Below are positions 3,001 to 23,721 of a DNA stretch of 64,000 bases, one piece after another. Every line of letters starts with the position of its first letter. Within the stretch, counting starts at the first letter, position 1. Origin of the DNA: Anaerolineales bacterium (GTDB taxonomy: Bacteria > Chloroflexota > Anaerolineae > Aggregatilineales > J027); assembly GCA_020634155.1 (NCBI GenBank), contig JACKCI010000001.1:1337306-1401305 (forward strand), read 5' to 3'. The position numbers and the translations under genes are program-made. The notes beneath the pieces were generated by a model. That model was not told where the DNA came from and ran no database searches. It saw only the letters and a list, made by a program, of their open reading frames with translations.

Positions 3001-4190
3001 TTGAAGGCTTGATTGACCCGTTGAGGGTACTGAAATTCTTGAAACAGTGTAGCCCACGCAAGGCGGGCCTCGGTTGAAGGCTTGATTGACCCGTTGAGGG
3101 TACTGAAATAACAGGTCAACAACCAGCACCACCAACCGACGCAAGTTGAAGGCTTGATTGACCCGTTGAGGGTACTGAAATTACGTTTGCCATGCTCCTA
3201 GATGATGTTGCCGAGGGTTGAAGGCTTGATTGACCCGTTGAGGGTACTGAAATGTTAGTTCTTGCTCTTTATTAGCCGCCTCAATAATGTTGAAGGCTTG
3301 ATTGACCCGTTGAGGGTACTGAAATTTTTGGGTGCTAAAAGATGGTAAGCGCTCGATTATGTTGAAGGCTTGATTGACCCGTTGAGGGTACTGAAATCTA
3401 TACCTTCGATAGTAACGCCACTGCAGCAGCGCGTTGAAGGCTTGATTGACCCGTTGAGGGTACTGAAATTGCACTGCCGTAGGGTAGTACACAGTATCCA
3501 GATTGTTGAAGGCTTGATTGACCCGTTGAGGGTACTGAAATAGACATGACCATAGGCTATGAGCCTGTCATAATTCAGTTGAAGGCTTGATTGACCCGTT
3601 GAGGGTACTGAAATACTTCAGTTAAGTCGTTGTCGTTATTGCTGACAGTTGAAGGCTTGATTGACCCGTTGAGGGTACTGAAATGCCGTCGCAATGGTTA
3701 GGCGCGTGCTGAAGAAATCGTTGAAGGCTTGATTGACCCGTTGAGGGTACTGAAATTCGCAAATGCGAGGGTCATTGACCGTTCCGTCGTTGTTGAAGGC
3801 TTGATTGACCCGTTGAGGGTACTGAAATAATACACCCGGCTATGAGGCGGGGTTCTGGGCGGGGTTGAAGGCTTGATTGACCCGTTGAGGGTACTGAAAT
3901 ACTGTTCACAGATGACCGGGAACAGGGCATAGTCGGGTTGAAGGCTTGATTGACCCGTTGAGGGTACTGAAATTTTGCAGAGGGATTCACCAAACAGCAA
4001 CGGCGGGGGTTGAAGGCTTGATTGACCCGTTGAGGGTACTGAAATCACGCGCTAGGGCGGGGGGAGATAATCAAAAGTGGGGTTGAAGGCTTGATTGACC
4101 CGTTGAGGGTACTGAAATATTGACATTGTGGTATGAGTCGGGAAATGCGTTTAGTTGAAGGCTTGATTGACCCGTTGAGGGTACTGAAAT
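39..4190 (+). repeat. CRISPR repeat-allele block A: 58 consecutive repeats with T at repeat position 11
   Basis: Manual enumeration of repeat starts (39, 111, 185 ... 4082, 4154). All copies read GTTGAAGGCTTGATTG... Confidence 0.9.
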
Positions 4191-4225
4191 AGAACCCCGC
4201 CGACAGCGCTATCAGCACTGAGGAT

Positions 4226-5849: not shown

Positions 5850-6099
5850 CATAATGAGCGCGTGGTGCGGTTCAAAAATGCCAATGTTGAAATTGTTCTG
5901 TGCTACTTTCCAGCTATTTACATCAGACAATAAGACAAGCGTCTGCTACCGCGCAACAAGGCCTCAATCTCCGACTGATTCAGACCATGATTTACTACTA
6001 TTTCAATGTTTATAAAGCGTGAGAGAATATGAAAGGGATTGGAGTCGCATCCTCAGCAGCAAGCCATCTATTGGCTGCAAAAGGATCAATTCACAAAAC

Positions 6100-6246
6100 T
6101 TAGCCTTCTTGGCGAGGGCGTCGCGGCTTTTTGGTATTCTTTCCCTTATTAATCGCCCAAACAAAGCTGACCAGACCTACATTAAGGATGGTCAACCCCA
6201 TTGGCAACCAATGGTTAATATCAAAAAGTGGCACACACACGGTCAT
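6100..6246 (-). CDS. Possible 48-aa small membrane protein (below the ORF-track size cut-off)
   Basis: ATG at 6246-6244 is preceded by GAAAGGAG with a 4-nt spacer. Translation: MTVCVPLFDINHWLPMGLTILNVGLVSFVWAINKGKNTKKPRRPRQEG, one hydrophobic helix plus a basic tail. Stop TAA at 6102-6100. No homology was recognised. Confidence 0.3.
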   Translation of the reverse strand: MTVCVPLFDINHWLPMGLTILNVGLVSFVWAINKGKNTKKPRRPRQEG

Positions 6247-6814
6247 GCGGCTCCTTTCTGCTACTTGATAATGCTAGACCCGTTACGACCTAGTGCGAGG
6301 AGGCGCTCCATCCCAATTTTTTAGTATTGATGAGATGTGCTGTTTTCGCAAATCTTTCGGGTGTCGATTGACCACCATACTGGCTCAAGGTGGCGGAGAG
6401 TGCGCCTTAACTCCACCTATCCTACTGATTCACAAAGACGGCAATGCAGTTCAACATCGCCGTCTGCATGTTCACCAAGTTTGTGTCTCGATGGTCAAAT
6501 GGTTGGACAAGCGCAATACAATATTTGCCATTACCTACTCTTGAATGACGGCGTGAGTTAACTCGTTCAACGTCACCTCCAACGCCAAGGAGCGCAGGCG
6601 CGTCATCTAAGTGAAATCGGCTTTGGCATCAGGGGCCTCGGCATTCAGCAAATAGGTCGCTTTAGCTTGACCTGTATGAGTTGTTTATGGTCTAAGTCAT
6701 TGTTACTCAAAAAAGCTGGGGGGTAGATTGAAAATCCTCAAATTATGATCTACTGAGTATAATTCTCATAGCAACACTGAATGGACATGGGCTGACCAAT
6801 AAGAGAATTAGAAA

Positions 6815-7549
6815 ATGGGTGAACATACTGAGTCGTGGTTTGAAGAAAAACTGGTTGTTGATGACGCCACCCTTGCCAACATTGAAAAGTCACTAGCATC
6901 TACCCCTATTGCAAAAACAATTACCGATACCCAGCGGCTTGTCCGGGGAATTGTGCGTGTTGATCGACCGCGCTGGCGCAAACTTTCCCCCGACGGGCAC
7001 CAGTTCTTGACCGCTGGTACTGCCGCTGATTATTATCTGGTGCGCTTAGGCTTCCAATTTGATTTTCCACCAGAAGCCGAAGTCTATAACCCGCGTTTCG
7101 TCTTTGCACGGTGTGAAGCAGCAATTTGGCCCGAACATGACACCCAGCCAGCACCCGTCATTTACGACCTCTATCCCCAAAACCTGACAGATGGCAACAA
7201 GCCAATGCAAGTGTCGCTCAAATTTGCGCCTAAGATTACCGTTGCGCCCACCATAGAGGTAGCCGGGCCGGAAGCTGGGGTAGCATGGGAGCAAGGCATT
7301 GTCGAACCTTCGTGTACTGGATTTCCGGGTGAACATGAACAACGCCCTTATTGGACACTCCGCCCCAAAAGCAAGTCGTTGATCGGGTTGCGTCATTTTT
7401 GGATGGTGATTGAAGCACCGCAAACTTGCACAGGTATTCGGCTAAAGGTGCAGGCGCGGGCCGACATAGAGTCGAAGTTATTTGGACTTATCTCGATGAA
7501 GCCAAGTGAGCCGGAATGGGCATCACGGCGTAGTATTGTGATTTCTTGA
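6815..7549 (+). CDS. Hypothetical 244-aa protein, first gene of the target-1 operon
   Basis: Clean ORF on the same strand, ending 15 nt before the target-1 start, so co-transcription is likely. The ORFs overlapping it on the opposite strand (for example 6921-7154 and 7046-7423) look like antisense artefacts. I recognise no catalytic or binding motif and no signal peptide or TM segment. Confidence 0.6.
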   Translation: MGEHTESWFEEKLVVDDATLANIEKSLASTPIAKTITDTQRLVRGIVRVDRPRWRKLSPDGHQFLTAGTAADYYLVRLGFQFDFPPEAEVYNPRFVFARCEAAIWPEHDTQPAPVIYDLYPQNLTDGNKPMQVSLKFAPKITVAPTIEVAGPEAGVAWEQGIVEPSCTGFPGEHEQRPYWTLRPKSKSLIGLRHFWMVIEAPQTCTGIRLKVQARADIESKLFGLISMKPSEPEWASRRSIVIS

Positions 7550-7564
7550 GAGGACAAACGATTT

Positions 7565-10500
7565 ATGCCCGAAGATAAGGTGAAGATTCCGCCAGATGTG
7601 CGGACGAGTATTGACGACCCAGAACGGTTAGCCGCCATACTCAAGCTCTCCACGCGGCTAAACCAGATTCATATGCAGCGTGCGATTCATGAGGGCAAAT
7701 CCGGTGCGGGTGTTTATTTAGTGCAGCTTTACTTTGCCCGTACCCAAGATCGAGAACGTGGACTTGAGGGCTATGCCTATCTCAAGGTGGATACGGCTGA
7801 CATAATCAAGACTGAGCTAGGCAAACATGAATCCGTTCGTCGGGGTGCTATGGAGCCATTCGTACCCGAAATTATCGAGGACTTGCACGAGCCACCCAAT
7901 GGGAGACCGCCTCAAGCCGCCTTGTTCTACGCACCAGCGGGCAAGACGACCAAATCCGCCAATTCTTTCGCACAATTGGTGAAAAATGGCGAGGTAAGCA
8001 ACAGCGATGTGCAAAGCATTGTTCAGACATTGAGCAGCGCACTCACGGGTTGGAATCCGCCGGACACCTGCTACAAAGAGCGCATACCCATGACAGCACG
8101 GGAATGGTTCCTACACCTGCTCAACTGCGGTAGCGATTCGGGTATGCGCCTAAGCGATATTCAGCGCTTAGATGTCTGCCCCACTATCGACAAGCCCCTG
8201 ATGCGCTTTCGAGAGTTGGGATGGGAGCTACCCAACCCGCGAGCCTATGCGCTAAACACTGACTTGTGGCGGTCGGCAACGCTACATGGCCCAACGGGCA
8301 ACATTCATGGCGATTTACATGGCGGCAATATCATCTGTCGTACCGATAGCGTTGGCTCCTTGCAACTCATCGACTTTGCACGCCACCAGCGCGACAAAGC
8401 GATTTTCTATGACTTGGCCTATTTGGAACTCGACACCATTTTGCATGTGATGCGCGGTGCAGATTGGGATGAATGGCGGCAATTGTTGGAACACCTCGCC
8501 CCACCTGTCAGCCATGATAGGCCCGTGCCAGCGACCGTGCTGCTCGAAAAAGAGCCGCCCAAGGTGCTGGCTGATCGGGCATGGCACTTCGTTCAGCCTG
8601 TGCGCGAGGTCGCACAGACCTACCTTAATGCCTGTACCACCCCTGATCTCAAGACCGAATTTGCCCAGCAATGGTGGCTCGCCGCCGCCGCAGTGGGCTT
8701 GGTATTCGCACAACGCAGCAGCTTCGCCAATCACCCCGAACAAATGCAGGCCTATCTCTATGCGGCAGTCTGCCTTGAGCGGGCCTTGACTGCCTGTCAG
8801 ATTGACCTCCCTATTCAGACCGACCCTGCCCCATGTTCATTAAACGCTACCGCCAGCACATCAGCCCCTACCGTTAAACTACACCCCCTCATCACCGATT
8901 ATGGACGTGATTTAGCCGCAGCCCTGCAAGAGTATGGCGATTTTTATGTAGACATGAGTGGTGAACAAAGCCCCACTATCCTCAATCCGGAAACGCCCAC
9001 CTCGAGACGCTTTGACCATATCCCACGCCCACACGCCCACCGCATCAAGGTCACAGCAGGGTTGGAAATGAAAGATAACCCCAGCGAAGGGGCCGCCAGC
9101 AGCAAGCCGATTGCCAATGTGCGCGATGCCTTGCGCCAAGCAGGACGGATTGTGCTGTTGGGAGAGCCGGGCAGCGGCAAGACCACCACCCTCAATCGTT
9201 TGGCCTTGGATTATGCCCACAGTCTAGAGACCAACCCCAACGGCTTGATTCCCGTGGTGGTGCCATTAAGCAACTATCGGGGGAGCAGCATCGAGGACTT
9301 CCATGCCTATGTGCAGCAGTGCCTCGCAACGCCCAACTTGGCTGCTATCATTGACCGCAGCCGCCTGCTGGTGCTGTGCGACGCGCTCAACGAGATGCCG
9401 CGCCAAGACCCCCGCACCCTCACCTCATTGCAGCAAGCCCTGCCCGCCTACCCCCATGTGATGGTCTCCTGCCGTGAAAAAGACTTTAACAACAACGACC
9501 TAGACGGCGCAGGCCGCCTCGAAGTGGTGGACATTAAGCCCCTGACCCCACCCCAGATGAAAGCCATCATCGACCAATACCTCTATCGTGATGCTACCGA
9601 TGGCGAATGGCACGGGTTAGCACCCGCAACCGCCCACGACTTATGGGAACATGAGTTGCTCGGAAACGACCTGTTGTTGGCAGCATGGACTGAAATGGCT
9701 GACAACGATGCAGCAGCGGCTTTTTGGCGCAACGAAGACCCGCCCGAACCCCTGTTACGCGACAAGGATAGATACGGTGGCAATTGGTGGCGAGATTTGG
9801 ACAAGCGCGACGAGATGCGGCGGGCGATGCTTGGCGACAAGAAGGGCTTGATGCTGCTGTGTCGCAACCCCTATATGCTCAGTACCTTGGTGATTGGCCT
9901 ATATGTGGAGACCGGGCGCATCCCCAACAATCGCGGCGCGTTGTTTAACGATTTTGTGGATGCCTTGATTACCCGCGAGATTGAAAACGCGCAGAAGCGC
10001 CAAGAGCCTTGGCCGCCCCAAACCGACCAGCGCCTTATCGCAGCCCTTAGCAACCTTGCCGAGGCCATGCAACTGAAGCGTAACGTGACCAGCTTGCCCA
10101 AAACCGAGGCCATGCCGTTCTTGGGCGATGCGTTGTGGCCCCTAGCTGTGCAGTGCAGCATTCTACAAGACCTCAGCGATCGGGTGCGCTTCAGCCACCA
10201 ACTGCTCCAAGAGTATTTCGCCAGCCGCAAGATGGGCGAAGACATGGACAATGCGGTTCCAGCCACCAAGTATTGGGCGGCTGACCGTTGGTGGGAACGG
10301 GTGGGGGCCGAGCAAACCGCGCTAATTTTGGCGGGGGTGCGGGCGGCAGGCGACCGTCAAGGCTTGGTCGAGGTCGTCCAATGGATCGCCACAGCCCAGC
10401 CCGAATTGGCCCTCGATTGTGTCATCGAAGTCGATGGCGAACCGCCCACCCTTGACCTTGGGTTGCTGGACATCCTAGCAGCAGCAGCCCGCGCCAAGCA

Positions 10501-11470
10501 AAACGAACCCCATCCACACGGGCGGGCAGCGGCCTATCGTGTGTTAGGACGCATTGGGGCCGACCAGCGGCGCGGCATCGGGGTGGGGGCCGATGGCTTG
10601 CCAGAGATAGATTGGGTGGAGATACCCGCAGGCAAGTTCACCTATGGCAGCGATAAGGCCAAAGACCCACAAGCCTATAGCGATGAGACACCCCAACGCA
10701 CGCTCCATCTGGAGACCTTCCACATGAGCCGCTACCCCATCACCTATGCTCAATATCAGGTTTTTGTGGAGGCGGCTGACGGCTTCAGTGACCCGCGCTG
10801 GTGGCAGGGGTTGGCTAAACGAGAAACCTCAGTCGGCGAACAAGCCTTCAAGGTTGCCAACCATCCACGAGAGGGCGTGAGTTGGTACGATGCGATGGCC
10901 TTCTGTCGGTGGTGGAGTTGGCGCTTGACGGTCGTCCATCGGGGCGGGTCACAGACCGCGCCCCTACCACCCAACGGTGATTTACCAACTCTGGCAGGGG
11001 TTGACTGGATGAACCCGCTGACATGGCGGGTGCGCCTGCCCACCGAATTTGAGTGGGAGAAGGCGGCCCGCGGGACGGATGGGCGCGTCTATCCATGGGG
11101 CGAGGACTATATCAGCGGCTATGCCAACATTAATGAAACAGGGGGTGGGGTTGGGCCATACTATCTGCGGCAAACAAGTGCAGTGGGCATGTACCCGCAC
11201 CGCGCCCCTGACCAGTCGCCCTATGGGGTAGCGGACTTGAGTGGCAACGTCTGGGAGTGGTGCCTGACCGAGTACGATGAACCCAGCAAAGACATAGATA
11301 TTACTAAGAGTTCGCCCCGTGTGGTGCGTGGCGGCTCGTGGCTCAGCGACCAAGACGATGCGCGGGCCGCCGTCCGCTACTTCGACGACCCGAACTACCG
11401 CGGCAGCGGCAGGGGGTTTCGGGTGGTGGCGTCTGCCCCTATTCTTGGTGCTCTGGTCTCTGGGGGGTGA
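7565..11470 (+). CDS. DGR target protein 1 (1301 aa): APH/kinase-like N-domain + STAND/NACHT-like P-loop NTPase + C-terminal FGE-sulfatase (C-type-lectin fold) domain carrying VR1
   Basis: RBS GAGAGGA lies about 9 nt upstream. The kinase-like region has GKSGAGVYLV, IHGDLHGGNII (HxDxxxxN catalytic-loop type) and LIDFARH. Walker A is VLLGEPGSGKTT and the Walker B-like motif is LLVLCDALNEM. FGE-sulfatase motifs are HPREGVSWYDAMAFCRW, RLPTEFEWEKAARG, GNVWEWC and RGGSW...RGFRVV. The last roughly 40 codons are VR1. Confidence 0.9.
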   Translation: MPEDKVKIPPDVRTSIDDPERLAAILKLSTRLNQIHMQRAIHEGKSGAGVYLVQLYFARTQDRERGLEGYAYLKVDTADIIKTELGKHESVRRGAMEPFVPEIIEDLHEPPNGRPPQAALFYAPAGKTTKSANSFAQLVKNGEVSNSDVQSIVQTLSSALTGWNPPDTCYKERIPMTAREWFLHLLNCGSDSGMRLSDIQRLDVCPTIDKPLMRFRELGWELPNPRAYALNTDLWRSATLHGPTGNIHGDLHGGNIICRTDSVGSLQLIDFARHQRDKAIFYDLAYLELDTILHVMRGADWDEWRQLLEHLAPPVSHDRPVPATVLLEKEPPKVLADRAWHFVQPVREVAQTYLNACTTPDLKTEFAQQWWLAAAAVGLVFAQRSSFANHPEQMQAYLYAAVCLERALTACQIDLPIQTDPAPCSLNATASTSAPTVKLHPLITDYGRDLAAALQEYGDFYVDMSGEQSPTILNPETPTSRRFDHIPRPHAHRIKVTAGLEMKDNPSEGAASSKPIANVRDALRQAGRIVLLGEPGSGKTTTLNRLALDYAHSLETNPNGLIPVVVPLSNYRGSSIEDFHAYVQQCLATPNLAAIIDRSRLLVLCDALNEMPRQDPRTLTSLQQALPAYPHVMVSCREKDFNNNDLDGAGRLEVVDIKPLTPPQMKAIIDQYLYRDATDGEWHGLAPATAHDLWEHELLGNDLLLAAWTEMADNDAAAAFWRNEDPPEPLLRDKDRYGGNWWRDLDKRDEMRRAMLGDKKGLMLLCRNPYMLSTLVIGLYVETGRIPNNRGALFNDFVDALITREIENAQKRQEPWPPQTDQRLIAALSNLAEAMQLKRNVTSLPKTEAMPFLGDALWPLAVQCSILQDLSDRVRFSHQLLQEYFASRKMGEDMDNAVPATKYWAADRWWERVGAEQTALILAGVRAAGDRQGLVEVVQWIATAQPELALDCVIEVDGEPPTLDLGLLDILAAAARAKQNEPHPHGRAAAYRVLGRIGADQRRGIGVGADGLPEIDWVEIPAGKFTYGSDKAKDPQAYSDETPQRTLHLETFHMSRYPITYAQYQVFVEAADGFSDPRWWQGLAKRETSVGEQAFKVANHPREGVSWYDAMAFCRWWSWRLTVVHRGGSQTAPLPPNGDLPTLAGVDWMNPLTWRVRLPTEFEWEKAARGTDGRVYPWGEDYISGYANINETGGGVGPYYLRQTSAVGMYPHRAPDQSPYGVADLSGNVWEWCLTEYDEPSKDIDITKSSPRVVRGGSWLSDQDDARAAVRYFDDPNYRGSGRGFRVVASAPILGALVSGG
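11313..11438 (+). repeat. DGR variable repeat VR1 (3' end of target 1)
   Basis: This 126-nt sequence is collinear with the reverse complement of 13127-13252. By manual alignment there are 16 mismatches, all at TR adenines. The 5' 29 nt and the 3' 28 nt (AGGGGGTTTCGGGTGGTGGCGTCTGCCC) are identical. Confidence 0.92.
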
Positions 11471-11480
11471 GCGAAGCGAA

Positions 11481-11501
11481 CCCCAAAAAAATTTTTTGGG
11501 G
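11481..11501. terminator. Perfect palindrome CCCCAAAAAA-A-TTTTTTGGGG between convergent target 1 and RT; candidate bidirectional terminator and/or DGR target-recognition hairpin
   Basis: Read directly from the sequence. It lies 42 nt after the VR1 end and 10 nt after the target-1 stop. A related A/T palindrome occurs in the same relative position after VR2. Confidence 0.5.
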
Positions 11502-11509
11502 GAGGGGTC

Positions 11510-12601
11510 CTAGGATTTTTTAGGCGGGCGGATGCGGAGGTTGCCCAATACATGCTCGCGCAGGCCCCACGTATCCGCATAGCGCACATGGTTAATCCAA
11601 CCTTGGACGCTGGCATCAAGTTCAGCAAAGCTGATACGCCCCTCGGCATAATCGCTGATACGGTCGGCAATGCGCTGCTGAAAATGCACCAGATTGCGGC
11701 GCTTAAGCAAGCGGTGGTGGGGATAGACCACAAAGCCCAGCCATGGAATGCCATGCTCAACGGGGATGACTTGGGCCTCAGTCTCATGGATGGTCAGGCG
11801 CAGATGGGCAAGGCGCTCGGTGAGGCGCTGCTTCCAACGATTCAGTTGGCGCTTGCTGTTGCTAAAGAGGGCGAAATCGTCCACATAGCGCAGGTAGGCG
11901 GAGCAGCCCAACTCGCGCACCACGAACCAATCCAAGGGGTTCATATACACATTCGACCAGAACTGCGAGGTCAGGTTGCCGATGGGTAGCCCTCGCGGAC
12001 GGTTGACCGCGAACAGGTCATCGCCCGCAAAATAGACCATGCGGTACTCGTCATCCAAGACACCCACCCCACTGGCGAGAATGCGCTCAATCAACCACAG
12101 GATGCGTGGGTCATCCAGCGCTTGGCCTAGGGTATCACGTAGCACGGCATGGTCAAGTGAGGGGAAGTGCTTGACAATATCGGCTCGCAGCACATAGGCA
12201 TAGGCGCGGCTAAAGGCTTGTAGGCGGTCAATGGCGCGGTGGGTGCCTTTGCCGATGCGGTTGGCATAGCTATCGGGGATGAAGCGCTGGTCGAAATAGG
12301 GTTCGATGATGTTGCACAGGGCATGATGCACCACACGGTCACGGAAGGGGGCCGCGCTGATTTTGCGCTGCTTGGGTTCATTGATATAGAAATGGGTATA
12401 GGGGCCGGGTTGGTAGGTCTGGGTGTGGAGGTCGTGCTGCAAAGCCGCTAACCGATCTGCAACCCGATGCTCGAAGTGGCTGGCGGGGTGTTGACCGCGC
12501 TTGCCCTTGGCGGCCCGTCGAAAGGCCAACCAGAGATTATCCCATGTAGTGATGGAGTCAAAAGATGGTGATTTTGAGTCGGACGTATGATTTGTTGGCA
12601 T
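11510..12601 (-). CDS. DGR-type reverse transcriptase
   Basis: Carries YVDDFALF (the YxDD catalytic motif) and [18 protein letters not shown] (the [I/L]GxxxSQ motif characteristic of DGR RTs). The N-terminus [17 protein letters not shown] is typical of the family. The ORF track starts at GTG 12655; I prefer ATG 12601 ([11 protein letters not shown]...). Either start overlaps the avd 5' end on the opposite strand. Confidence 0.92.
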
Positions 12602-12894
12602 GGGTGCTACCCCGCACCGAAAAATTCCCGCGTTTGTATCGCAACACCATAACACGGCGCTTGCTGGATGCCTTGCTCGATTTTCAGGAACTGCTATATG
12701 AGGCCAATGCCGCCCAAGGCTCCAAACGGCTGACGTATCTGCGGCGGGCCGATGGTCATTTGGACAAGCTACGGCTCTATCTGCGCTTGGCCTTCGACTT
12801 GCAGTGGCTCACTAGCGGGCAATATGAGCATGTCAGCCGCATGGTCGAGGAGGTTGGGCGCTTGTTGGGTGGGTGGATTCGAGAGAGTAGCTAG
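12565..12894 (+). CDS. avd: Avd-like accessory variability determinant (four-helix-bundle / 23S rRNA-IVS protein family), 109 aa
   Basis: GGAG RBS about 7 nt upstream. The sequence is [33 protein letters not shown]...[40 protein letters not shown]. It matches the family pattern as I remember it: basic, all-helical and about 110 aa. It is encoded on the strand opposite to RT and TR. Confidence 0.85.
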
Positions 12895-12896
12895 GC

Positions 12897-12934
12897 GGGT
12901 ACAGTGGGAGCGAATCCAGACTGTACCCAGTTTT
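12897..12934 (+). terminator. Candidate rho-independent terminator of avd
   Basis: GGGTACAGT (12897-12905) pairs with ACTGTACCC (12920-12928) across a 14-nt loop. It is followed by AGTTTTAT and begins 3 nt after the avd stop. Confidence 0.5.
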
Positions 12935-13126
12935 ATGTATGTGCCTGACGGCAACCCAAGGCCACCGTGCAGACCAGACACACCTGCGCTATTCTTCATC
13001 CTTCGCCGCATCCAGCAAACCGTAGTCGGCTGGCCCTATTGGAAGCGGTGACCCTATGGTGGGGGGCCGCTCGCACTGCCCATCGCCCGTAGGCAACAGG
13101 CCGCCTGAGAAGGCGCAGACGAACAT

Positions 13127-13252
13127 GGGCAGACGCCACCACCCGAAACCCCCTGTTGTTGTTGCGGTTGTTCGGGTTGTTGTTGTTGCGGACGGCGGCC
13201 CGCGCATTGTCTTGGTTGTTGTTCCACGAGCCGCCACGCACCACACGGGGCG
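13127..13252 (-). repeat. DGR template repeat (TR)
   Basis: Non-coding copy of the VR sequence. The minus strand reads ...TGG AAC AAC AAC CAA GAC AAT GCG CGG GCC GCC GTC CGC AAC AAC AAC AAC CCG AAC AAC CGC AAC AAC AAC AGG GGG... It has 30 adenines, 12 of its codons being AAC. Track ORF 12996-13244 (MVRGGSWNNNQDNARAAVRNNNNPNNRNNNRGFRVV) is just its translation. Confidence 0.92.
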
Positions 13253-13322
13253 TCTGGTCTCAGGGTGCCTGACGAATGGGTACCCACCCGTAAAAACCAG
13301 TATACCGCAAGACCCCATTTTT

Positions 13323-13338
13323 CAAAAAAAATTTTTTG
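13323..13338. promoter_or_regulatory. A/T palindrome CAAAAAAAATTTTTTG downstream of VR2 (counterpart of 11481-11501)
   Basis: Lies 12 nt after the target-2 stop on the minus strand. It is preceded by the same TGAGCGAAGCGA sequence found after target 1. Confidence 0.45.
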
Positions 13339-13350
13339 CGCTCGCTTCGC

Positions 13351-16300
13351 TCACGCCCCAGAGACCAGAGCACCAGAGGGTATAGGGGCAGACGCCACCA
13401 CCCGAAACCCCCTGAAGGTGAGGCGGTAGCTCGGGACGAGGTAGTGGCGGACGGCGGCCCGCGCATCGTCCCGGGCGCTGAGCCACGAGCCGCCACGCAC
13501 CACACGGGGCGAACTATTAGTAATATCTATGTCTTTATTGGGTTCACGGTACTCGGTCAGACACCATTCCCAGACGTTGCCGCTCAAGTCCGCTACCCCA
13601 TAGGGCGACTGGTCAGGGGCGCGGTGCGGGTACATGCCCACTGCACTCGTTTGACCGAGAGTGAATGGCCCCACTTTGGTACCACCAAAACGTGCTGTTT
13701 CGTCAATGTTGGCATAGCCGCTGATATACTCATTGCCCCACGGATAGACACGCCCATCCGTCCCGCGGGCCGCCTTCTCCCACTCAAACTCGGTGGGCAG
13801 GCGCACCAGCCATGTCAGCGGGTTCATCCAGTCAACCCCTGCCAGAGTTGGTAAATCACCGTTGGGTGGTAGGGGCGCGGTCTGTGACCCGCCCCGATGG
13901 ACGACCGTCAAGCGCCAACTCCACCATCGACAGAAGGCCATCGCGTCGTACCAACTCACGCGCTCGCGGGGGTGGTTGGCAACCTTGAAGGCTTGTTCGC
14001 CGACTTGGGATTGGTTACGGCGTCGGTCTTCATCATCCGCCAACCCCTGCCACCAGCGCGGGTCACTGAAGCCGTCAGCCGCCTCCACAAAGACCTGAAA
14101 TTGAGCATAGGTGATGGGGTAGCGGCTCATGTGGAAGGTTGAGAGTGGCTCATGGGTGCGGTCTTGATACGTCCATTTCCCGTCGTCGGGTATCTCCACC
14201 CAATCTATCTCTGGCAAGCCATCGGCCCCCACCCCGATGCCGCGTCGCTGGTCGGCCCCCACAAGCCCCAAGATGCGGTAGGCCGCCGCCCGTCCGTATG
14301 GGTGGGGTTCGGCGCTGTGGTGTCGTGCGCCTTCAATCAGCGCCTGCCGACCTGCTTCGGTCAAATCAGCCAGCGTCTTGCCCTCCCCATTGCGTAACAG
14401 CACACTCAGGGCCAGTTCGGGGGTGACGGGAGCCAGCCATGTCAAAACGCGGATGGGGTCGCGCACCAACTCGCCCAGAATCACGATGGTCTCACGCCAT
14501 GGCCCGGCCTCCCACCAATCCGGTGTAAAGAAAGGCGCAGGCGATTGCCCACCCTCTAGGGCGACCAACAACTCAGCCGTGGCGAAGTATTCTTGAAAGA
14601 GTTGGTGGCTAAATTGAAGGGTTGTCCCCAACTGGATGAGGTTGGCAGCTTCGGCGTCGCGCAAGAGGGCCTCAGCGCTGGCAGCATCTAGGCTGCTATC
14701 CACAGCTTGGGCCGCTTGCAGGGCCGCCGCACGGGTAATTTCGGTGCGTTGTTCGGTGCGTTGCACAGCAGCAGCAATCGCGGAAAGGACGGTCTCGATA
14801 CGGGCTTTGTGTTCAGGGGGCCATGGTTGCTGGCGTTTTTCTGCCAACTCCGCTTCATGATTCAGCAGCTTGGTGACAAAGCCGTTGAACAAACCCGCCC
14901 GATTGCCGGGCAAGGCCTGTTCGGGGGGCAAGCCCTTGTCGATAGCCCAGCGGAACAAGCCAATCACCAATTGCCCCAAGGTGAAGGGATTACGACACGC
15001 CAACAGCAGACGCCGCTTATCCTGATGGACACGCTGTCGGGCGTTGCGGTGCTGTCCATAGGCTTGGGGGTAGTCAATGCGCCATGCCTCGTTGGACTGG
15101 AGGCGTTGGGCAATTGCTGCGCGTTCATCTTCGGGAAAATAAAGCACCTTCACCGTATCGGGAATGGGGCAACTCGGCTGCCAGAAGTCGTCTTCGTGGT
15201 CTACAAAATAGTCCCATGCCGCGATTAGGTCGGCGCTCCCGTGCATCAATTGCCACAACTGCTCGCCCTGTTCGGGCAGGCGTTGGGTAATGATGCGATA
15301 GATTTGGGCCGGGGTCAGGTCACGCAATTGCAGCCGATCAAGGTGCGGGATGCTGCTCAACTCGTTGGTGTAGTCACGCACCCGACACGACACCACAAAG
15401 CGCTCGCAGCCTTGGATAAAGGCCAGCACTTCGGGCATCAGCTTGCGCTTGTCTGGCCCCGTGCGCGGCATCTCGTTCAGGGCGTCAAAGAGCCACACCA
15501 GCTTCAAATCGGCACGATAGGGTTGCAAGGCCCCTAGCTGCCCCTCGGCATATTCGCTGAAGCTGGTCTTCCCATCAAAGCCTGAAAGCTTCACAAAGAC
15601 GGGCAAGGGTGGGGCTTCCCCATCGGCCTTGGTAGCCTTGTCATCGGCATAGTCCAGCGTCAGGCGTTGCAGCAGGGTCGTCTTGCCGCTGCCCGGCTCA
15701 CCCAACAGCACCACCCGCTTCAACTTCATGAGGCGTTCCCGCACCTTGGGCACCCGCTCGCCTGCCTCCTGCGCTTTCTCGCTCATGGCGGGGATGGTGG
15801 CGGCAAATAAACTGCCGAATAAGTCCTCCAACTCATCGGGGGATGGCTCTAGTGCCCGCGTTGGGTGGTAGGGTTCGGGGCGTTGCTCCCCGCGCAGGTC
15901 AATGGTGGTCTTCAATTCATCGTGCATTTCCCGTAACAACCCCTCCCGATAGGCAGCAATGTCATCAGGACGCAGGGGGGCGCTGCCCGCTTGCCACTGC
16001 ACTTGATAAGGCAGCGTTTGGCTCGGCTCCAAGCCAATCTGTTGGAGTAGGTGGCGTAGCGCACTCGCCGCATACAGGAGCGTGACCTTGCGCTGTTGAG
16101 GGGTGGTGTTGTGGCTGCGGCGGGTAGCGATGGTTCCAGCCGCCACGACTGCCAACCAGAAGGCATTTTCGTACTGCTCGGCAATGCTCTCATCAAATGG
16201 TTGTAAGAACTGGGCGAGATACTGTCGGATAGGCTGAATGAGTTGCCACACCGAGGCGGGCTTGATGCCTTGAGGCAGGCCCGGTGGCACCACCCCTCGC

Positions 16301-17217
16301 GCCAGAAATTGCGTCAAGTGTACCCAATCATTCCAATCGGCCTCGGTTTCGGCCCCCAACGTCCGCAACATCACATCCAATTCGAGATAAGCCAAATCGA
16401 ACAACGGGAAGCCGTTTTCATCAAACTGCTGGAGGTCAATCAACCAAGGTGGGGTGTCGGCGGGCTGGTTGAGTGCATCGAGCTTGCACATCAGGTTATC
16501 AGCATGAAAATCGCCGTGCATCGGCCCCCGCGGGATGGTGAGCTTCTTGTCATGCCACAACGCGGCATTCAAAGCATAAGCAATTGGGTTGGGAAACGAG
16601 GCGGATAAATCGTGTCCGGGCCAAAAGCTGACGTTATCTTGCACATTAGGTGGCAAGCCCATCTCGCGGGCGCGGCTATTGATGTCGCGGGTGCGTTTTT
16701 TACCCCCGACGTTAATCATGGCCTGTAGTGCTTCATATATGGGTATTGACGCACGGCCTTGGCGTATATCGCGGGCATCATGCCAGCACTTCAGTACAGG
16801 GTCAAATGAATAAGTAATCTGCTTGGTACAGGAGCTAATCAGTTGATGCTCAATCAGCTTTGCCAACGAGGTGGCACTTTGGGTGCGGTGCTGCGCGGGT
16901 TGATAGAGCAACAGCGCATACTCCACCTCATCCTGCACAACCGGCCCAATCAATCCGCCAATAATCCCTGCTAAATACGACTTGATACACTCGTCAGTTG
17001 CGCGTTGTTGATTCCTCAGCGCCTTCTCCATCGCGTCTTTGGTGTCAATTTTAGCGAAGGCCAAGCCATCATATTGCCGTGAGGTCGAGCCTTGAATGTC
17101 TACCAGCACAACTTGTGCGCCCGAAAGCCCGCCCGCCATACGCTCCATGGGCGTAATCTTGCCATCTTGATAAGCCTCGAATAACTGTTGGACATAGCGC
17201 GGATACACCTCGCTCAT
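13351..17217 (-). CDS. DGR target protein 2 (1288 aa): same kinase-like + STAND/NACHT-like NTPase + FGE-sulfatase/CLec architecture, carrying VR2
   Basis: RBS GGGAGGA lies upstream. Motifs are MHGDFHADNLMC, WLIDLQQF, Walker A VVLLGEPGSGKTT and Walker B-like LVWLFDALNEM. The C-terminal roughly 300 aa are nearly identical to target 1 (for example VSWYDAMAFCRWWSWRLTVVHRGGSQTAPLPPNGDLPTLAGVDWMNPLTW). The N-terminal two-thirds are much more divergent. Confidence 0.9.
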   Translation of the reverse strand: MSEVYPRYVQQLFEAYQDGKITPMERMAGGLSGAQVVLVDIQGSTSRQYDGLAFAKIDTKDAMEKALRNQQRATDECIKSYLAGIIGGLIGPVVQDEVEYALLLYQPAQHRTQSATSLAKLIEHQLISSCTKQITYSFDPVLKCWHDARDIRQGRASIPIYEALQAMINVGGKKRTRDINSRAREMGLPPNVQDNVSFWPGHDLSASFPNPIAYALNAALWHDKKLTIPRGPMHGDFHADNLMCKLDALNQPADTPPWLIDLQQFDENGFPLFDLAYLELDVMLRTLGAETEADWNDWVHLTQFLARGVVPPGLPQGIKPASVWQLIQPIRQYLAQFLQPFDESIAEQYENAFWLAVVAAGTIATRRSHNTTPQQRKVTLLYAASALRHLLQQIGLEPSQTLPYQVQWQAGSAPLRPDDIAAYREGLLREMHDELKTTIDLRGEQRPEPYHPTRALEPSPDELEDLFGSLFAATIPAMSEKAQEAGERVPKVRERLMKLKRVVLLGEPGSGKTTLLQRLTLDYADDKATKADGEAPPLPVFVKLSGFDGKTSFSEYAEGQLGALQPYRADLKLVWLFDALNEMPRTGPDKRKLMPEVLAFIQGCERFVVSCRVRDYTNELSSIPHLDRLQLRDLTPAQIYRIITQRLPEQGEQLWQLMHGSADLIAAWDYFVDHEDDFWQPSCPIPDTVKVLYFPEDERAAIAQRLQSNEAWRIDYPQAYGQHRNARQRVHQDKRRLLLACRNPFTLGQLVIGLFRWAIDKGLPPEQALPGNRAGLFNGFVTKLLNHEAELAEKRQQPWPPEHKARIETVLSAIAAAVQRTEQRTEITRAAALQAAQAVDSSLDAASAEALLRDAEAANLIQLGTTLQFSHQLFQEYFATAELLVALEGGQSPAPFFTPDWWEAGPWRETIVILGELVRDPIRVLTWLAPVTPELALSVLLRNGEGKTLADLTEAGRQALIEGARHHSAEPHPYGRAAAYRILGLVGADQRRGIGVGADGLPEIDWVEIPDDGKWTYQDRTHEPLSTFHMSRYPITYAQFQVFVEAADGFSDPRWWQGLADDEDRRRNQSQVGEQAFKVANHPRERVSWYDAMAFCRWWSWRLTVVHRGGSQTAPLPPNGDLPTLAGVDWMNPLTWLVRLPTEFEWEKAARGTDGRVYPWGNEYISGYANIDETARFGGTKVGPFTLGQTSAVGMYPHRAPDQSPYGVADLSGNVWEWCLTEYREPNKDIDITNSSPRVVRGGSWLSARDDARAAVRHYLVPSYRLTFRGFRVVASAPIPSGALVSGA
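13386..13511 (-). repeat. DGR variable repeat VR2 (3' end of target 2)
   Basis: This 126-nt sequence is collinear with TR on the same strand. By manual alignment there are 21 mismatches, all at TR adenines, and the flanking blocks are invariant. Confidence 0.92.
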
Positions 17218-17237: not shown

Positions 17238-19115
17238 TTACTCGTTCACCAGTAGAACTATTTTATCCATTTGTGGCGTGCTAAAACGGGGTTGTTGTTC
17301 TTTGCCAACACTTAAAGCCCGCCGCTTGACTTCCTCGCGCAGCAATCTAAACACATCCAACACCTCGACCTCACCGGGATGGCTCATCGCCTCAATCAGC
17401 ACCTCAGTAAAGAGGCTATTGTGGTGTCCACCGAGGATATAGGATGACTGCGTTTCGGTAGAGGAGGCAATCAACGCCCGCCCACTGCCTGCTAACAACT
17501 GGGGGTTGATTGCTTTAGGAATCAAGTCGGCTTGGAAAACATCTTTGGTCAAGACCGCCCCACCTGCATGGCAACAATCAAGGAAAACGACCATACGTTG
17601 AGCGCTCACATCTTGTAGCCATGTGTTGAACATGCTCATATTAAGGGCGGTACTCAGAAAATCGTGCGGATTATACTCATGTGGGATAAAGAAGTAGTCA
17701 TCTGTTGTAGTAGCCATCCCATGTCCAGAATAGTACACAATCGCGGTGGCATTGGCATCAACTCTGACCTTCTCGCGTAGCCAGTCAAACGCTGCTTGAA
17801 TGGTAGGAATGGCGGCCTGTTCATCAGTCAACACTTTGACCTGTTCAGACAAATAACCTGCGCGTTTTGTGAGAAACTCCTTGACCGCCAAGGCATCATT
17901 GGCCGTGATAGGCAATGAATATTTGGGGTTCTTGGTCTCACCCACCCCAATTACCAAGGCATACCCGTGTTCAAATGGTTGCACTGGGCGTATTCCGTGA
18001 ACAATGGCGATTTGGGCAAGGGGTTGCGTAGGAGCGAGAACCTCAATCTGGGTGCTGTCGGTAGTTGGTAAGTTGAATGCTTCTGCTACTTGGGCAAAAG
18101 CCAATGTTCCATAGACCAATGCCGCCTTGCGATACAGGTCTGATGCTTGTGGGTCGGCAAATGCGCGTAATGCAGCGATAGTACCACACATCCAATAGGC
18201 GGTTTCAATCCGTTCACCCAGTGTAGAGTGCATGGCGTCCATATAGGCTTTAATGCTTTGACGCAAGGGCAGAATTATTTGTAGCGCATGAGATGCAATG
18301 AAACCCGCAATATCGTGGGGATTGGGTGTGATGGCAGTACAAATATGAGAGCATAGCCCAACCCACTCCTCCCATGAGGCACGCTCCAACATGAACTGCT
18401 GAAGCACTGATAGTTCCAACATTGTCCAGTCCAAAAGGATAGGGCCTTGTTCATCAAGTGTCCGCACATCCATGAGGACGGGTTCATTCTTGGCAATGTA
18501 CACGTGGCTGACATCCAATTGTCCGTGCATGATTCCCATCGGCATCAGCAGTGATTGATTGGTTGACCAAAGCGCATCGTTCATGACCCATGCCACTGGA
18601 TTCCTATAAACTCGATTTCCTATCGAGATTGTGTCATGAATTGTGGTTGCGGATGAGAAAGGTGTGTATTGACGTAGCCAATCGCGTAGATTGAAGGCCT
18701 CGCGCTTCAAATCCCGCACATCATTCCAATTTTTGAGATAACCTGCCAACTTCTCCAACAAGGCTACCATCTCATTGATTCGCGGACTGGCGTCTTGAAG
18801 GTACGTCACCAAGGGGCGGATATGGTTAATATGCGGCACATCCACTAAACACCCAACGGTACCAGCAGTGTCCACCAATTCAGCTACTGAAGTGGGAAAC
18901 ATCTCTAGTTTAAGCCGTTCCACACGTCTTTGTTGGCTAGTGATTGCGTCGGGGTCGCCAGTGGCGTAACGCTGCAAGAGATACATACCTTGCACGTCGC
19001 GTTGTCGTATGGCGTTGCTATCGACACGATAGAGTTTTAACGAGGGAATAGCAGAGGGTACTTCGTCATAAAGCACTAATGGTGGCGAAAAAAGATTCAA
19101 CAGCTTATAAACCAT
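17238..19115 (-). CDS. Caspase-fold (peptidase C14) protein with an N-terminal degenerate kinase-like domain homologous to the N-termini of the DGR targets (625 aa)
   Basis: The C-terminal roughly 260 aa carry ALVIGV, IVYYSGHG (catalytic His) and VVFLDCCHAGG (catalytic Cys). The N-terminal roughly 330 aa align by eye with both targets at three blocks. These are NPVAWVMNDALW vs NPIAYALNAALW / NPRAYALNTDLW, HGQLDVSHVYI vs HGDFHADNLMC / HGDLHGGNIIC, and LLDWTMLELSVL vs LFDLAYLELDVML / FYDLAYLELDTIL. The gene ends 20 nt before the target-2 start. Confidence 0.85.
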   Translation of the reverse strand: MVYKLLNLFSPPLVLYDEVPSAIPSLKLYRVDSNAIRQRDVQGMYLLQRYATGDPDAITSQQRRVERLKLEMFPTSVAELVDTAGTVGCLVDVPHINHIRPLVTYLQDASPRINEMVALLEKLAGYLKNWNDVRDLKREAFNLRDWLRQYTPFSSATTIHDTISIGNRVYRNPVAWVMNDALWSTNQSLLMPMGIMHGQLDVSHVYIAKNEPVLMDVRTLDEQGPILLDWTMLELSVLQQFMLERASWEEWVGLCSHICTAITPNPHDIAGFIASHALQIILPLRQSIKAYMDAMHSTLGERIETAYWMCGTIAALRAFADPQASDLYRKAALVYGTLAFAQVAEAFNLPTTDSTQIEVLAPTQPLAQIAIVHGIRPVQPFEHGYALVIGVGETKNPKYSLPITANDALAVKEFLTKRAGYLSEQVKVLTDEQAAIPTIQAAFDWLREKVRVDANATAIVYYSGHGMATTTDDYFFIPHEYNPHDFLSTALNMSMFNTWLQDVSAQRMVVFLDCCHAGGAVLTKDVFQADLIPKAINPQLLAGSGRALIASSTETQSSYILGGHHNSLFTEVLIEAMSHPGEVEVLDVFRLLREEVKRRALSVGKEQQPRFSTPQMDKIVLLVNE

Positions 19116-23710: not shown

Positions 23711-23721
23711 GGACATCACCG

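Follow-up and report, generated by a model that had tools for sequence, protein, structure and literature searches.

A complete diversity-generating retroelement between two putative NLR-like receptors in an Anaerolineales bacterium

The window, by which we mean the whole 64,000-nucleotide stretch of DNA analysed here, contains a complete diversity-generating retroelement (DGR), comprising reverse transcriptase (RT), accessory protein Avd and TR, that lies between its two target genes, T1 and T2. We interpret T1 and T2 as paralogous cytoplasmic NLR-like receptors that use this one DGR; the explanation as a whole, including the mechanism and the caspase coupling proposed below, we hold to be somewhat better than an even bet. 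The features on which the argument turns are as follows (open reading frame coordinates are exact; the start codons of T1 and T2 are at 7565 and, on the minus strand, 17217).

39–5849, plus strand: CRISPR array, in which a 37-nt repeat occurs at least 81 times with a period of about 72 nt; it continues past the left edge of the window
6815–7549, plus strand: orf244, a conserved hypothetical gene 16 nt upstream of T1
7565–11470, plus strand: T1, DGR target 1, 1301 aa, with TCAD9 kinase-like, NACHT and FGE-type C-lectin (CLec) modules
7565–8884, plus strand: T1 N-terminal protein-kinase-like (TCAD9) domain, aa 1–440 (Pfam, AF2, Foldseek)
8867–10564, plus strand: T1 NACHT-type STAND module, aa about 435–1000 (Pfam, motifs, family profile)
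9161–9187, 9365–9397, 9464–9475 and 10190–10219, plus strand: T1 Walker A, Walker B, VSCR and FSHQLLQEYF motifs, respectively
10520–11467, plus strand: T1 CLec domain, aa 986–1301 (Pfam, PDB sequence matches, AF2, Foldseek)
11313–11438, plus strand: VR1, 126 nt, T1 codons 1250–1291, of which 16 are A-programmable (TR comparison)
11446–11498, no strand assigned: 53-nt element conserved 3′ of both VRs; partner copy at 13323–13375
11510–12604, minus strand: DGR RT, 364 aa from the ATG at 12604, the frame being open back to 12655
12565–12894, plus strand: Avd accessory protein (Pfam bAvd, 1.7e-19; NCBIfam DivGenRetAVD)
13127–13252, sense on the minus strand: TR, with 30 adenines and 13 AAY codons plus CAA, GAC and AGG
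13351–17217, minus strand: T2, DGR target 2, 1288 aa, with the same three modules as T1
15958–17217, about 14251–15762, and 13354–14295, minus strand: T2 N-domain, NACHT module and CLec domain, respectively
13386–13511, minus strand: VR2, 126 nt (TR comparison)
17238–19115, minus strand: predicted TCAD9-pseudokinase–caspase protein, 625 aa; its gene shares the strand of T2 and lies 20 nt upstream of it
18006–19115 and 17271–17966, minus strand: its pseudokinase and Peptidase_C14 parts, respectively

The RT is recognised by Pfam (RVT_1) and by PADLOC (RT, 3e-49) and carries the IGNLTSQ and YVDD motifs; Avd scores 100.9 bits against NCBIfam DivGenRetAVD (cut-off 80). The avd gene occupies the strand opposite to RT and TR, its 5′ end overlapping that of the RT gene. 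A comparison of TR with the two variable regions (VRs) reveals that mismatches are confined to TR adenines: this is true of 16 of 16 in VR1 (P = 2e-12), 21 of 21 in VR2 (P = 3e-17), and all 14 differences between VR1 and VR2, with all 96 non-A positions identical among the three sequences. Identity between T1 and T2 in the flanking CLec DNA is only 88–98%, and the contrast implies recent homing into both targets. From the intact parts we infer ongoing DGR activity at this locus. Diversification is not universal: in the P0002 lineage the VR is frozen across nine population variants. The sole second assembly of the source organism breaks before the VR.

Both VRs, each the last ~40 codons of a CLec domain, are templated by the single TR, and with 16 adenine-programmable codons per VR there are about 1e17 possible protein variants per receptor. 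The 16 codon positions are hypervariable in 34 homologues (3.06 bits, compared to 0.98 bits for scaffold positions inside the VR; P = 1e-6), and the residues that occupy them in T1 and T2 are mostly polar or charged (LSDQDD, YFDD, NY and GSGR in T1). Among CLec-fold DGR proteins of known structure, the variable residues are in every case exposed to solvent and make up the binding site (PMC6328139); by analogy, the VR is the predicted binding face of the CLec domain in T1 and T2. The 53-nt element, an inverted repeat 89% complementary, contains an A/T palindrome between T1 and RT; its predicted fold is not clearly better than that of shuffled sequences (z = −2.2 and −0.5).

A preliminary description of this DNA had assigned three modules to each target: an APH/protein-kinase-like N-terminal module, a central NACHT-like P-loop NTPase and a C-terminal FGE-sulfatase domain of C-type-lectin fold. 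All three were recovered by profile search, two of them also by structure prediction, and every motif quoted in their favour is present. Equally sound was the statement that both proteins lack signal peptides and transmembrane segments: hydropathy detected no transmembrane segment in either (maximum Kyte-Doolittle 19-residue mean 1.29–1.41), and neither start is signal-peptide-like, both N-termini being charged. For the C-terminal domain, Pfam FGE-sulfatase matches T1 and T2 with E values of 1e-52 and 1e-43; PDB sequence matches of the T1 domain are FGE, CalU17 and TvpA, and the AF2 model (pLDDT 90.7) gives a best Foldseek E of 4e-17, with the DGR target TvpA among the matches (4.5e-14).

The N-terminal domain exceeds the Pfam TCAD9 cut-off of 40 bits in both proteins (59.5 bits in T1, 57.6 in T2); the Pfam APH match is weak (about 17 bits). 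The motifs HGDLHGGN (T1 248–255) and HGDFHADN (T2 234–241) are accompanied by IDF and IDL. Key residues in T1 are the Gly-rich loop (G44–V50), K74, E84, H248-G-D250, N255 and D270, and the catalytic set (K74, E84, D250, N255, D270) is invariant across 12 relatives. The AF2 model (pLDDT 87, pTM 0.89) has choline kinase, glucosamine kinase, APH(3′)-Ia and receptor Ser/Thr kinases as its top Foldseek matches. Because the catalytic set is intact, real phosphotransfer by the T1 and T2 domains is suggested; because the catalytic motif has been lost in some family members, several of them sensor-type, a scaffold role can be argued as well.

In the central module, GEPGSGKTT is found at T1 533–541 and T2 506–514, along with LCDALNEM and LFDALNEM. 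Pfam NACHT scores 28.2 bits in T1, above the cut-off of 26.7, and 25.9 bits in T2, just under it; among relatives NACHT is matched by 41 of 44 (best E 2e-16), and the family profile finds the NACHT domains of NLRC4 and NLRP6 in the PDB. The NACHT–CLec chassis is shared by 235 relatives at E ≤ 1e-30, with the CLec domain in 136 of the top 152. On this chassis the N-termini are swapped: of 44 relatives, 20 carry TIR, 15 EAD8, 12 Pkinase, 6 CHAT and 6 trypsin. Such swapping supports the NLR/STAND logic proposed in the preliminary description, in which a predicted sensor and switch are joined to an N-terminal output, and we infer an immune function for T1 and T2. Searches of PADLOC and NCBIfam place neither protein in a characterised anti-phage family, the matches lying at the P-loop only.

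The gene upstream of T2 provides a possible partner. Pfam recognises Peptidase_C14 (3.7e-23) and TCAD9 (31 bits) in its product, and the caspase His/Cys dyad is intact (YSGHG, DCCHAG). The N-terminal domain aligns with the full T1/T2 N-domain, with K replaced by Q, HGD by HGQ and N by H; having lost the K, catalytic D and N, it is predicted to be a catalytically dead TCAD9. Orthologues at two related loci, L001 and L029, show the same losses. Pairing of the sensor with a pseudokinase–caspase recurs in two other lineages, being found in L001–L003 and L029, and mirrors the published rule that puts one adaptor-domain copy on the NTPase and a second on the effector protein (PMC8195603). The caspase and sensor genes of L029 are divergent, not co-directional; operon linkage is thus not fixed. 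Upstream of T1 is orf244, for which Pfam, PADLOC, NCBIfam and PDB sequences returned no family or PDB match. At locus L035 a 77% orthologue precedes a 71–75% T1 orthologue by 14 nt, and 45% homologues adjoin a CpXC-TPR-CHAT protein; orf244 is a candidate accessory or effector.

The locus appears to sit in a defence context, a role for which we argue from architecture and neighbourhood. It adjoins a very large CRISPR array (81 repeat matches, compared to none expected), and relatives adjoin Cas_APE2256, DarT/Macro, a PLD-like/HATPase_c_3/helicase gene set, HicAB and a WD40-Roc protein. L029 is a syntenic relative with a decayed copy of the cassette, in which two convergent paralogues enclose a TR, VRs and what remains of RT and Avd. 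Several close homologues stand alone amid housekeeping genes and have no RT within 10 kb. Elsewhere the window encodes ordinary metabolism and two-component regulators. The caspase gene, orf244 and the CRISPR array, all absent from the preliminary description, make a kinase-like domain coupled to a caspase, in place of the kinase itself, the likely output.

The mechanism we propose begins with reverse transcription of TR RNA with adenine-specific errors, the cDNA replacing VR1 or VR2 and so re-specifying the two ligand-binding faces independently. A VR variant would bind an intracellular ligand, most likely a molecule of a phage or other invader, leading to nucleotide exchange at NACHT and oligomerisation. 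The clustered TCAD9 N-domains may then engage the dead TCAD9 of the adjacent caspase protein by kinase–pseudokinase pairing, phosphorylation, or both; the caspase, activated by proximity, would kill the cell or arrest its growth and thereby protect kin. T1 would instead be paired with orf244, which may be a second output.

If T1 and T2 were regulatory or developmental receptors, then endogenous or environmental ligands would tune physiology or differentiation via the kinase domains, and the DGR would retune specificity. This is the reading proposed for cyanobacterial DGR targets in work by Vallota-Eastman et al., as summarised in PMC10907252, and it accords with the full catalytic set kept in T1 and T2, with the metabolic and housekeeping surroundings of several homologues and with the remaining content of the window. 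We consider it unlikely, given that relatives on this chassis bear effectors typical of suicide or immunity (TIR, CHAT, trypsin, EAD8), that the caspase partner is conserved, that the locus is next to a CRISPR array and its relatives next to other defence-type genes, and that a physiological ligand that stays fixed hardly calls for some 1e17 variants per receptor. Distinctly unlikely, in our view, is that the kinase-like domain serves as the terminal effector in its own right, as a small-molecule or protein kinase of APH/choline-kinase type switched on by ligand, with the caspase gene and orf244 as independent neighbours. Small-molecule kinases are indeed its closest folds, its catalytic residues are invariant, a canonical Pkinase takes the same position in 12 of 44 relatives, and many homologues have no caspase nearby; yet the caspase protein bears a dead homologous copy of the same rare domain, their pairing is found in three lineages, the catalytic motif is gone from several sensor-type members of the family, and the orf244–T1 adjacency is also conserved.

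Two further alternatives concern the DGR and its target domain. The DGR might be a recent fossil, T1 and T2 now being fixed in specificity and their A-specific differences recording past diversification only; L029, which lost most of RT/Avd and kept TR and VRs with the same mismatch pattern, and the frozen VR of P0002 are precedents. With RT and Avd full-length, the RT motifs present, Avd above its equivalog cut-off and the non-A positions identical beside diverged flanks, we regard this as improbable. That the C-terminal domain is an enzyme of FGE, EgtB or OvoA type, and not a binding module, is scarcely credible: FGE-superfamily enzymes are its best sequence and fold matches, but its scores are far under equivalog cut-offs (85 compared to 360 bits for EgtB), the DGR binding protein TvpA matches equally well, and what corresponds to the FGE catalytic loop is the VR itself, which is AAC-coded in TR and contains no cysteine in T1 or T2.

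The favoured reading, of diversified NLR-like receptors, belongs to a published concept (Kaur 2020/2021; Doré 2024), and the locus is a clean, testable new example rather than a new kind of system. DGR-diversified STAND NTPase–FGS (CLec) conflict systems have been predicted by comparative genomics (Kaur 2021, eLife, PMC8195603; Doré 2024, PNAS, PMC10907252), a class without functional data for any member (PMC10907252); the literature searched contained no experimental test of it, in agreement with the preliminary description on both counts. Like these systems, among them the RT 'clade 5D' loci of Doré 2024 (for example, Thiohalocapsa PB-PSB1 DGR 3 and DGR 6), our locus combines a central NACHT-type STAND, a C-terminal FGE-type CLec with VR, an RT and a four-helix Avd, with two paralogous targets as predicted cytoplasmic antigen sensors, an N-terminal adaptor/effector domain that is found again on a separate peptidase effector, and relatives from filamentous or multicellular lineages. 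It differs in that the N-domain is TCAD9 with catalytic residues, not EAD8, bacterial Death-like, TIR or canonical Pkinase; the partner is a caspase with a TCAD9 pseudokinase, not trypsin with EAD8; a conserved 244-aa protein partners T1; and avd is inverted relative to RT and TR.

The antiviral STANDs of bacteria that have been characterised by experiment, Avs1–5 and bNACHT (Nature 2026, PMC13581612), share the order of N-terminal effector, STAND NTPase and C-terminal sensor, and the homology to the NACHT of NLRC4 and NLRP6; FGE-sulfatase sensors have been noted among defence-associated STANDs (PMC13581612). Theirs are germline-fixed sensors (TPR and similar) with fused nuclease, protease or TIR effectors, whereas the T1/T2 sensor is somatically diversifiable and its likely effector a separate gene. 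TCAD9 takes its name from the system context of PMC7159879 (2020), whose systems also feature FGS domains, caspases and DGRs and are enriched in multicellular bacteria; the ORFs scanned around our locus include no MoxR, vWA or VMAP genes, and here a NACHT NTPase, joined to the sensor in one protein, serves as the switch. With Mtd (phage BPP-1), TvpA (Treponema) and TaqVP our targets share the FGE-subtype CLec, the C-terminal VR, AAY-coded variable positions and an invariant 3′ end acting as IMH, but those proteins are extracellular or surface receptor-binding, the CLec being alone or with phage-tail domains, whereas T1 and T2 are predicted 1300-aa intracellular multidomain switches. An analogy may be drawn with the apoptosome and inflammasome, in which an NLR oligomer recruits a caspase via a shared adaptor fold, and with RIPK3–MLKL, in which an active kinase works with an executioner that bears a pseudokinase, the sequence relationship extending to the general kinase fold and no further. 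New in this analysis are the kinase/pseudokinase–caspase twist, the conserved orf244, the adjoining CRISPR array and the decayed cassette of a syntenic relative.

T1 and T2, the two target genes of the diversity-generating retroelement (DGR), are convergent open reading frames that enclose what is, judged by its sequence, a complete DGR: an RT, an Avd, one template repeat (TR) and a variable repeat (VR) in each target. The interval 7565-17217, singled out in the preliminary description, runs from the start codon of T1 to that of T2. The elements of the locus are as follows.

39-5849, (+): CRISPR array; a 37-nt repeat, GTTGAAGGCTTGATTGACCCGTTGAGGGTACTGAAAT, occurs at least 81 times, with spacers of ~35 nt; runs past the left edge of the window
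6815-7549, (+): orf244, a conserved 244-aa hypothetical gene, 16 nt upstream of T1
7565-11470, (+): T1, 1301 aa; HGDLHGGN at residues 248-255
11313-11438: VR1, in T1
11510-12604, (-): RT (RVT_1 2.3e-14; PADLOC RT 3e-49; ORF region 11510-12655)
12565-12894, (+): Avd (NCBIfam DivGenRetAVD equivalog 100.9 bits, cut-off 80; Pfam bAvd 70.7 bits, cut-off 40)
13127-13252, sense on (-): TR, 126 nt
13386-13511: VR2, in T2
13351-17217, (-): T2, 1288 aa; HGDFHADN at residues 234-241
17238-19115, (-): caspase partner, 625 aa, 20 nt upstream of T2

A comparison of the repeats reveals a strict bias toward adenine. All 16 mismatches between TR and VR1 and all 21 between TR and VR2 fall on TR adenines, of which there are 30 in 126 nt (P = 2e-12 and P = 3e-17, respectively); the 14 differences between VR1 and VR2 lie, without exception, at TR-A positions, and 96/96 non-A positions are identical across the three repeats. 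The 30 adenines occupy 13 AAY codons together with CAA, GAC and AGG, and ~1e17 possible protein variants per target were computed from the TR codons (core). The sequence GGGGGTTTCGGGTGGTGGCGTCTGCCC is common to TR, VR1 and VR2 at a GC-rich 3' end, immediately after which TR and VRs diverge; it probably acts as the IMH (the invariant 3' end of the VR), and the pattern resembles an IMH/IMH* pair. A target-recognition hairpin in the conserved 53-nt element 3' of the VRs was not distinguishable from shuffled sequences for T2 (z -0.5) and marginal for T1 (z -2.2).

The RT carries IGNLTSQ at residues 208-214 and YVDD at residues 240-243; the IGxxxSQ motif is a hallmark of DGR-type RTs. The avd gene is placed between RT and TR on the strand opposite to both, and its 5' end overlaps the 5' end of the RT gene in antisense by ~40 nt. 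No promoter or terminator signal above chance level was detected, and Rfam returned no match in the window. A second, independent assembly of the source organism (L034) stops at T2 residue 1001, before the VR, and the protein cluster of T1 has a single member.

The two targets are far from uniform in their similarity: their N-domains share 25% identity, their NACHT modules 30% and their C-lectin (CLec) domains 79%. At the DNA level the CLec-coding ends form an inverted repeat of ~1 kb (10504-11498 vs 13323-14311) with 88-98% identity, which points to concerted evolution of the DGR-targeted domain or to gene conversion within it. T1, T2 and RT have a G+C content of 55-62%, against a window mean of 51.8%, 48.9% in the caspase gene and ~45% in the flanking ABC transporter region; the raised G+C of positions 8000-16000 may reflect foreign origin, or constraint on the CLec and TR sequence.

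Each target had been described as a fusion of three modules, and profile searches recovered kinase-like, NACHT and FGE-sulfatase domains in both; every motif quoted in that description, IDF and IDL included, is present in the proteins. The proteins were also said to be free of signal peptides and transmembrane segments. Kyte-Doolittle means over 19 residues peak at only 1.3-1.4 and the N-termini are charged, and we therefore concur that neither has a transmembrane segment or a signal-peptide-like start.

The N-domain, at first described as APH- or kinase-like, matches Pfam TCAD9, a protein-kinase-like family, with 59.5 bits in T1 and 57.6 in T2 (cut-off 40); the APH match is weak. An AlphaFold2 (AF2) model built from an alignment of 12 relatives (pLDDT 87, pTM 0.89) was compared to PDB structures with Foldseek: all matches at E<=1e-3 are kinases, with modest TM-scores of 0.39-0.50, headed by choline kinase, glucosamine kinase, APH(3')-Ia and TGF-beta-receptor kinases. 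Fold and family agree with the kinase-like assignment. A sequence search of PDB with the N-domain profile gave only a macrolide phosphotransferase at the HGD motif, which was non-significant (E 0.56). Across T1, T2 and 10 relatives the catalytic set comprising K74 (beta3 Lys), E84 (alphaC Glu), D250 (HxD Asp), N255 and D270 (metal-binding Asp) is invariant or near-invariant, as are the Gly-rich loop and H248-G-D250. Because the Gly-rich loop and these five residues are kept, the kinase-like domains of T1 and T2 look catalytically competent.

The central module carries the Walker A sequence GEPGSGKTT in both proteins, with LLVLCDALNEM and LVWLFDALNEM as Walker B, which conform to GxxxxGK[ST] and to hhhhD with an acidic residue after it, respectively. 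Pfam NACHT scores 28.2 bits in T1, above the cut-off of 26.7, and 25.9 in T2, just under it. Evidence for the NACHT-like P-loop NTPase seen in the initial reading is stronger at the level of the family: NACHT is matched by 41 of 44 relatives, at best with E 2.1e-16. The family profile, compared to PDB, finds the NACHT domains of NLRC4 (1.4e-5) and NLRP6; when the NTPase region alone was searched against PDB sequences, there was no match. Retained in the family consensus are LLGEPGSGKT, DALNEMP, VSCR and VRFxHQLLQEYFAA, the last of which we take to be the NLR winged-helix histidine motif. It conforms to FxHxxxQE[YF]hAA, is present as FSHQLLQEYFAS in T1 (876-887) and as FSHQLFQEYFAT in T2, and is near-invariant in the 44 relatives.

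The C-terminal module is an FGE-type CLec domain. Pfam FGE-sulfatase matches with E 1e-52 in T1 and 1e-43 in T2, and PDB sequence matches comprise FGE, CalU17 and TvpA. The AF2 model (pLDDT 90.7) has a best Foldseek E of 4e-17 and matches the DGR target TvpA with E 4.5e-14 (TM 0.57/0.65). Pfam, AF2 and Foldseek concur on the C-type-lectin fold, with the VR at its end, that had been read from the sequence. The active-site cysteine pair of FGE sits in a C-terminal loop. That the CLec domain might be a catalytic FGE was considered and rejected, because this loop holds no such pair: the VR, which is equivalent to the catalytic loop, lacks cysteine in T1 and T2, and the TR has AAC codons there (for the position of the FGE cysteine in the C-terminal loop, see PMC6328139).

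VR1 spans codons 1250-1291 of the 1301 in T1. One way to quantify its variability is to compare programmable and scaffold positions among homologues: in 34 of these, mean column entropy is 3.06 bits at the 16 TR-programmable positions and 0.98 bits in the interleaved scaffold (P = 1e-6). The scaffold comprises RGGSW, ARAAxR, P, R and GFRVV. In T1 and T2 polar or charged residues predominate at the programmable positions, and the VR positions align with the C-terminal region of TvpA and of FGE paralogues; in every solved DGR protein with the CLec fold, the binding site is made up of the variable residues, which are exposed to solvent (PMC6328139). Indirect evidence thus favors an exposed face over a buried core as the probable place of the VR residues of T1 and T2.

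When T1 residues 1-1000 were used in an exhaustive search without a profile, 3388 relatives were returned at E<=1e-3, 235 of them at E<=1e-30. The CLec domain is found at the end of 136 of the 152 top relatives, and about two dozen of the 152 begin with a TCAD9-like domain. The N-terminal domains of 44 relatives that lack TCAD9 are TIR (20), EAD8 (15), Pkinase (12), CHAT (6), trypsin (6) and DUF4062 (4). Such a layout, in which switch and sensor stay constant and the effector or adaptor at the N-terminus is exchanged, is the NLR pattern; the NLR/STAND logic attributed to T1 and T2 in the preliminary description is supported by the swapping of domains and fits Kaur et al. 2021 and Doré et al. 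2024. Word-indexed homologue searches were less productive, with 3 proteins for full-length T1 and one for the N-domain alignment. Scans of genome and metagenome contigs gave at least 2-3 true relatives among the matches listed, the closest of which are on contigs with Chloroflexota names, Aggregatilineales UBA2796 and Anaerolineaceae.

The Aggregatilineales UBA2796 contig (L029) shares the layout of the locus, in that a pair of TCAD9-NACHT-CLec paralogues converges and is accompanied by a TR and two VRs. Its paralogues have the same homogenised CLec ends (5236-6057 vs 7600-8448), and avd is likewise inverted relative to RT (7180-7429). The cassette (6100-7550) is decayed: the TR (6251-6381) and both VRs are kept, Avd is reduced to its last ~24 aa and RT to its last ~62 aa, and the gap is filled by the toxin-antitoxin genes hicA/hicB. 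A different situation obtains in the lineage of contigs L001-L003, where nine full-length variants of one protein cluster (P0002), from different metagenomes, are identical at the VR-equivalent hypervariable positions, and no RT is present on a 13-kb contig. This homologue appears to be frozen and non-diversifying, which argues against universal DGR activity and has no bearing on the T1/T2 locus.

The genes immediately 5' of T1 and T2, and the CRISPR array, were overlooked in the preliminary description. The C-terminal part of the caspase partner matches Peptidase_C14 with 82.9 bits (cut-off 21.4), and its dyad is intact, in YSGHG (H465) and DCCHAG (C515), as it is in three orthologues; the NCBIfam model of EACC1-type caspases scores 93, under its threshold of 140. 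The N-terminal 370 residues can be aligned over their full length with the kinase-like domain of T1 and T2, and here the beta3 Lys is replaced by Q, the catalytic Asp is lost (HGQ) and the Asn is replaced by H. On account of these three losses we regard the domain as a pseudokinase. Two further lineages, L001-L003 and L029, have orthologous pseudokinase-caspases with the same losses beside their TCAD9-NACHT-CLec genes, and the sensors of both retain the catalytic set. L001 carries, in addition, a Cas_APE2256 gene and the gene of a third TCAD9-domain protein, which is 1410 aa long and has no further Pfam match.

The second partner, orf244, has no match in Pfam, PHROGs, NCBIfam, PADLOC or PDB sequences. 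A 77% orthologue (6159-6893 on contig L035) is separated by 14 nt from the 71-75% T1 orthologue downstream of it, and 45% homologues (8001-8705 on contig L037) lie directly downstream of a 1737-aa CpXC-TPR-CHAT protein. It is possible that orf244 is a protease-linked effector; a gasdermin-like role is only a lead. In the CRISPR array, the 23 repeats closest to the DGR locus carry one substitution, T11C, and no cas gene was found in the examined part of the window. Small ORFs at 250-5376 were discarded as artefacts of the CRISPR repeats. On the other side of the locus, positions 22359-31877 hold a purine/oxamate catabolism cluster, an ordinary chromosomal context, with xanthine-dehydrogenase-type FAD, 2Fe-2S and molybdopterin subunits, AllG/AllH oxamate carbamoyltransferase subunits, a cyclase and an amidase. 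Beyond it, a 1004-aa BTAD + NB-ARC + TPR protein at 32319-35333 (-), an AfsR/SARP-like STAND regulator, is unrelated to T1 and T2.

How might these parts work together? Adenine-mutagenised cDNA of the TR would replace VR1 or VR2; a VR variant that binds an intracellular ligand would release the NACHT switch, and the receptor would oligomerise. The clustered TCAD9 domains could then engage the pseudokinase of the caspase partner by pairing, phosphorylation or both, and the caspase would be activated by proximity. It is a published rule that an adaptor domain borne by the NTPase recurs on the effector (Kaur et al. 2021, PMC8195603), and TCAD9, present on T1 and T2 and also on the caspase partner, fits this rule. 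Tentatively, and with the balance in our judgment against it, TCAD9 may be an adaptor akin to Death-fold or EAD domains: a DGR-programmed NACHT receptor would cluster active TCAD9 and so recruit, and perhaps phosphorylate, the TCAD9 pseudokinase-caspase, with one TR programming two receptors that have different outputs, the caspase (T2) and orf244 (T1).

We infer a role in defence from the effector repertoire of the relatives, the neighboring CRISPR array and the defence-type neighbors of homologues. Against this reading stand the solitary occurrence of some homologues, in housekeeping contexts, the VR that is frozen in one lineage, and the fact that no member of the class has ever been tested experimentally (Doré et al. 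2024, PMC10907252). Curated defence models match T1 and T2 only at the length of the P-loop (EruA 35 bits, cut-off 1000; PADLOC E>=1e-4), and PADLOC gave no meaningful match for T1, T2 or orf244.

For DGR-diversified intracellular proteins, the leading hypothesis is an adaptive-like, retroelement-driven repertoire of NLR-type antigen sensors in multicellular bacteria. The locus is compact (~12.3 kb) and apparently intact, combining a single RT/Avd/TR cassette, two sensors and a dedicated caspase partner, with a kinase-like domain common to sensors and partner as the link, and the decayed cassette of L029 provides a natural comparison; it is therefore a good candidate for reconstitution. Such work could ask whether the VR sets specificity, whether the caspase is controlled by NACHT activity, and whether coupling runs through the kinase/pseudokinase pair. 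The locus is thus suited to a first experimental test of the 'hypermutating NLR' hypothesis.

With respect to known systems, a vWA-MoxR-VMAP ternary system was rejected, because the ORFs of at least 150 aa between 6.8 and 40.5 kb include none for MoxR, vWA or VMAP. We did not find descriptions in the literature of TCAD9 kinase/pseudokinase pairing with a caspase, of the orf244 partner or of an inverted avd. The locus falls within the class of DGR-associated STAND-FGS/CLec systems that Kaur et al. 2021 (PMC8195603) and Doré et al. 2024 (PMC10907252) predicted, and a 2026 survey (PMC13581612) likewise depicts STANDs with FGE sensors; the locus sets up no new class, and a specialist would not be surprised by it. 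T1 and T2 fall in none of the characterised families of Avs or bNACHT, and the executioner relay of kinase and pseudokinase proposed for T2 and its caspase partner would, if true, be alike in logic to RIPK3-MLKL.
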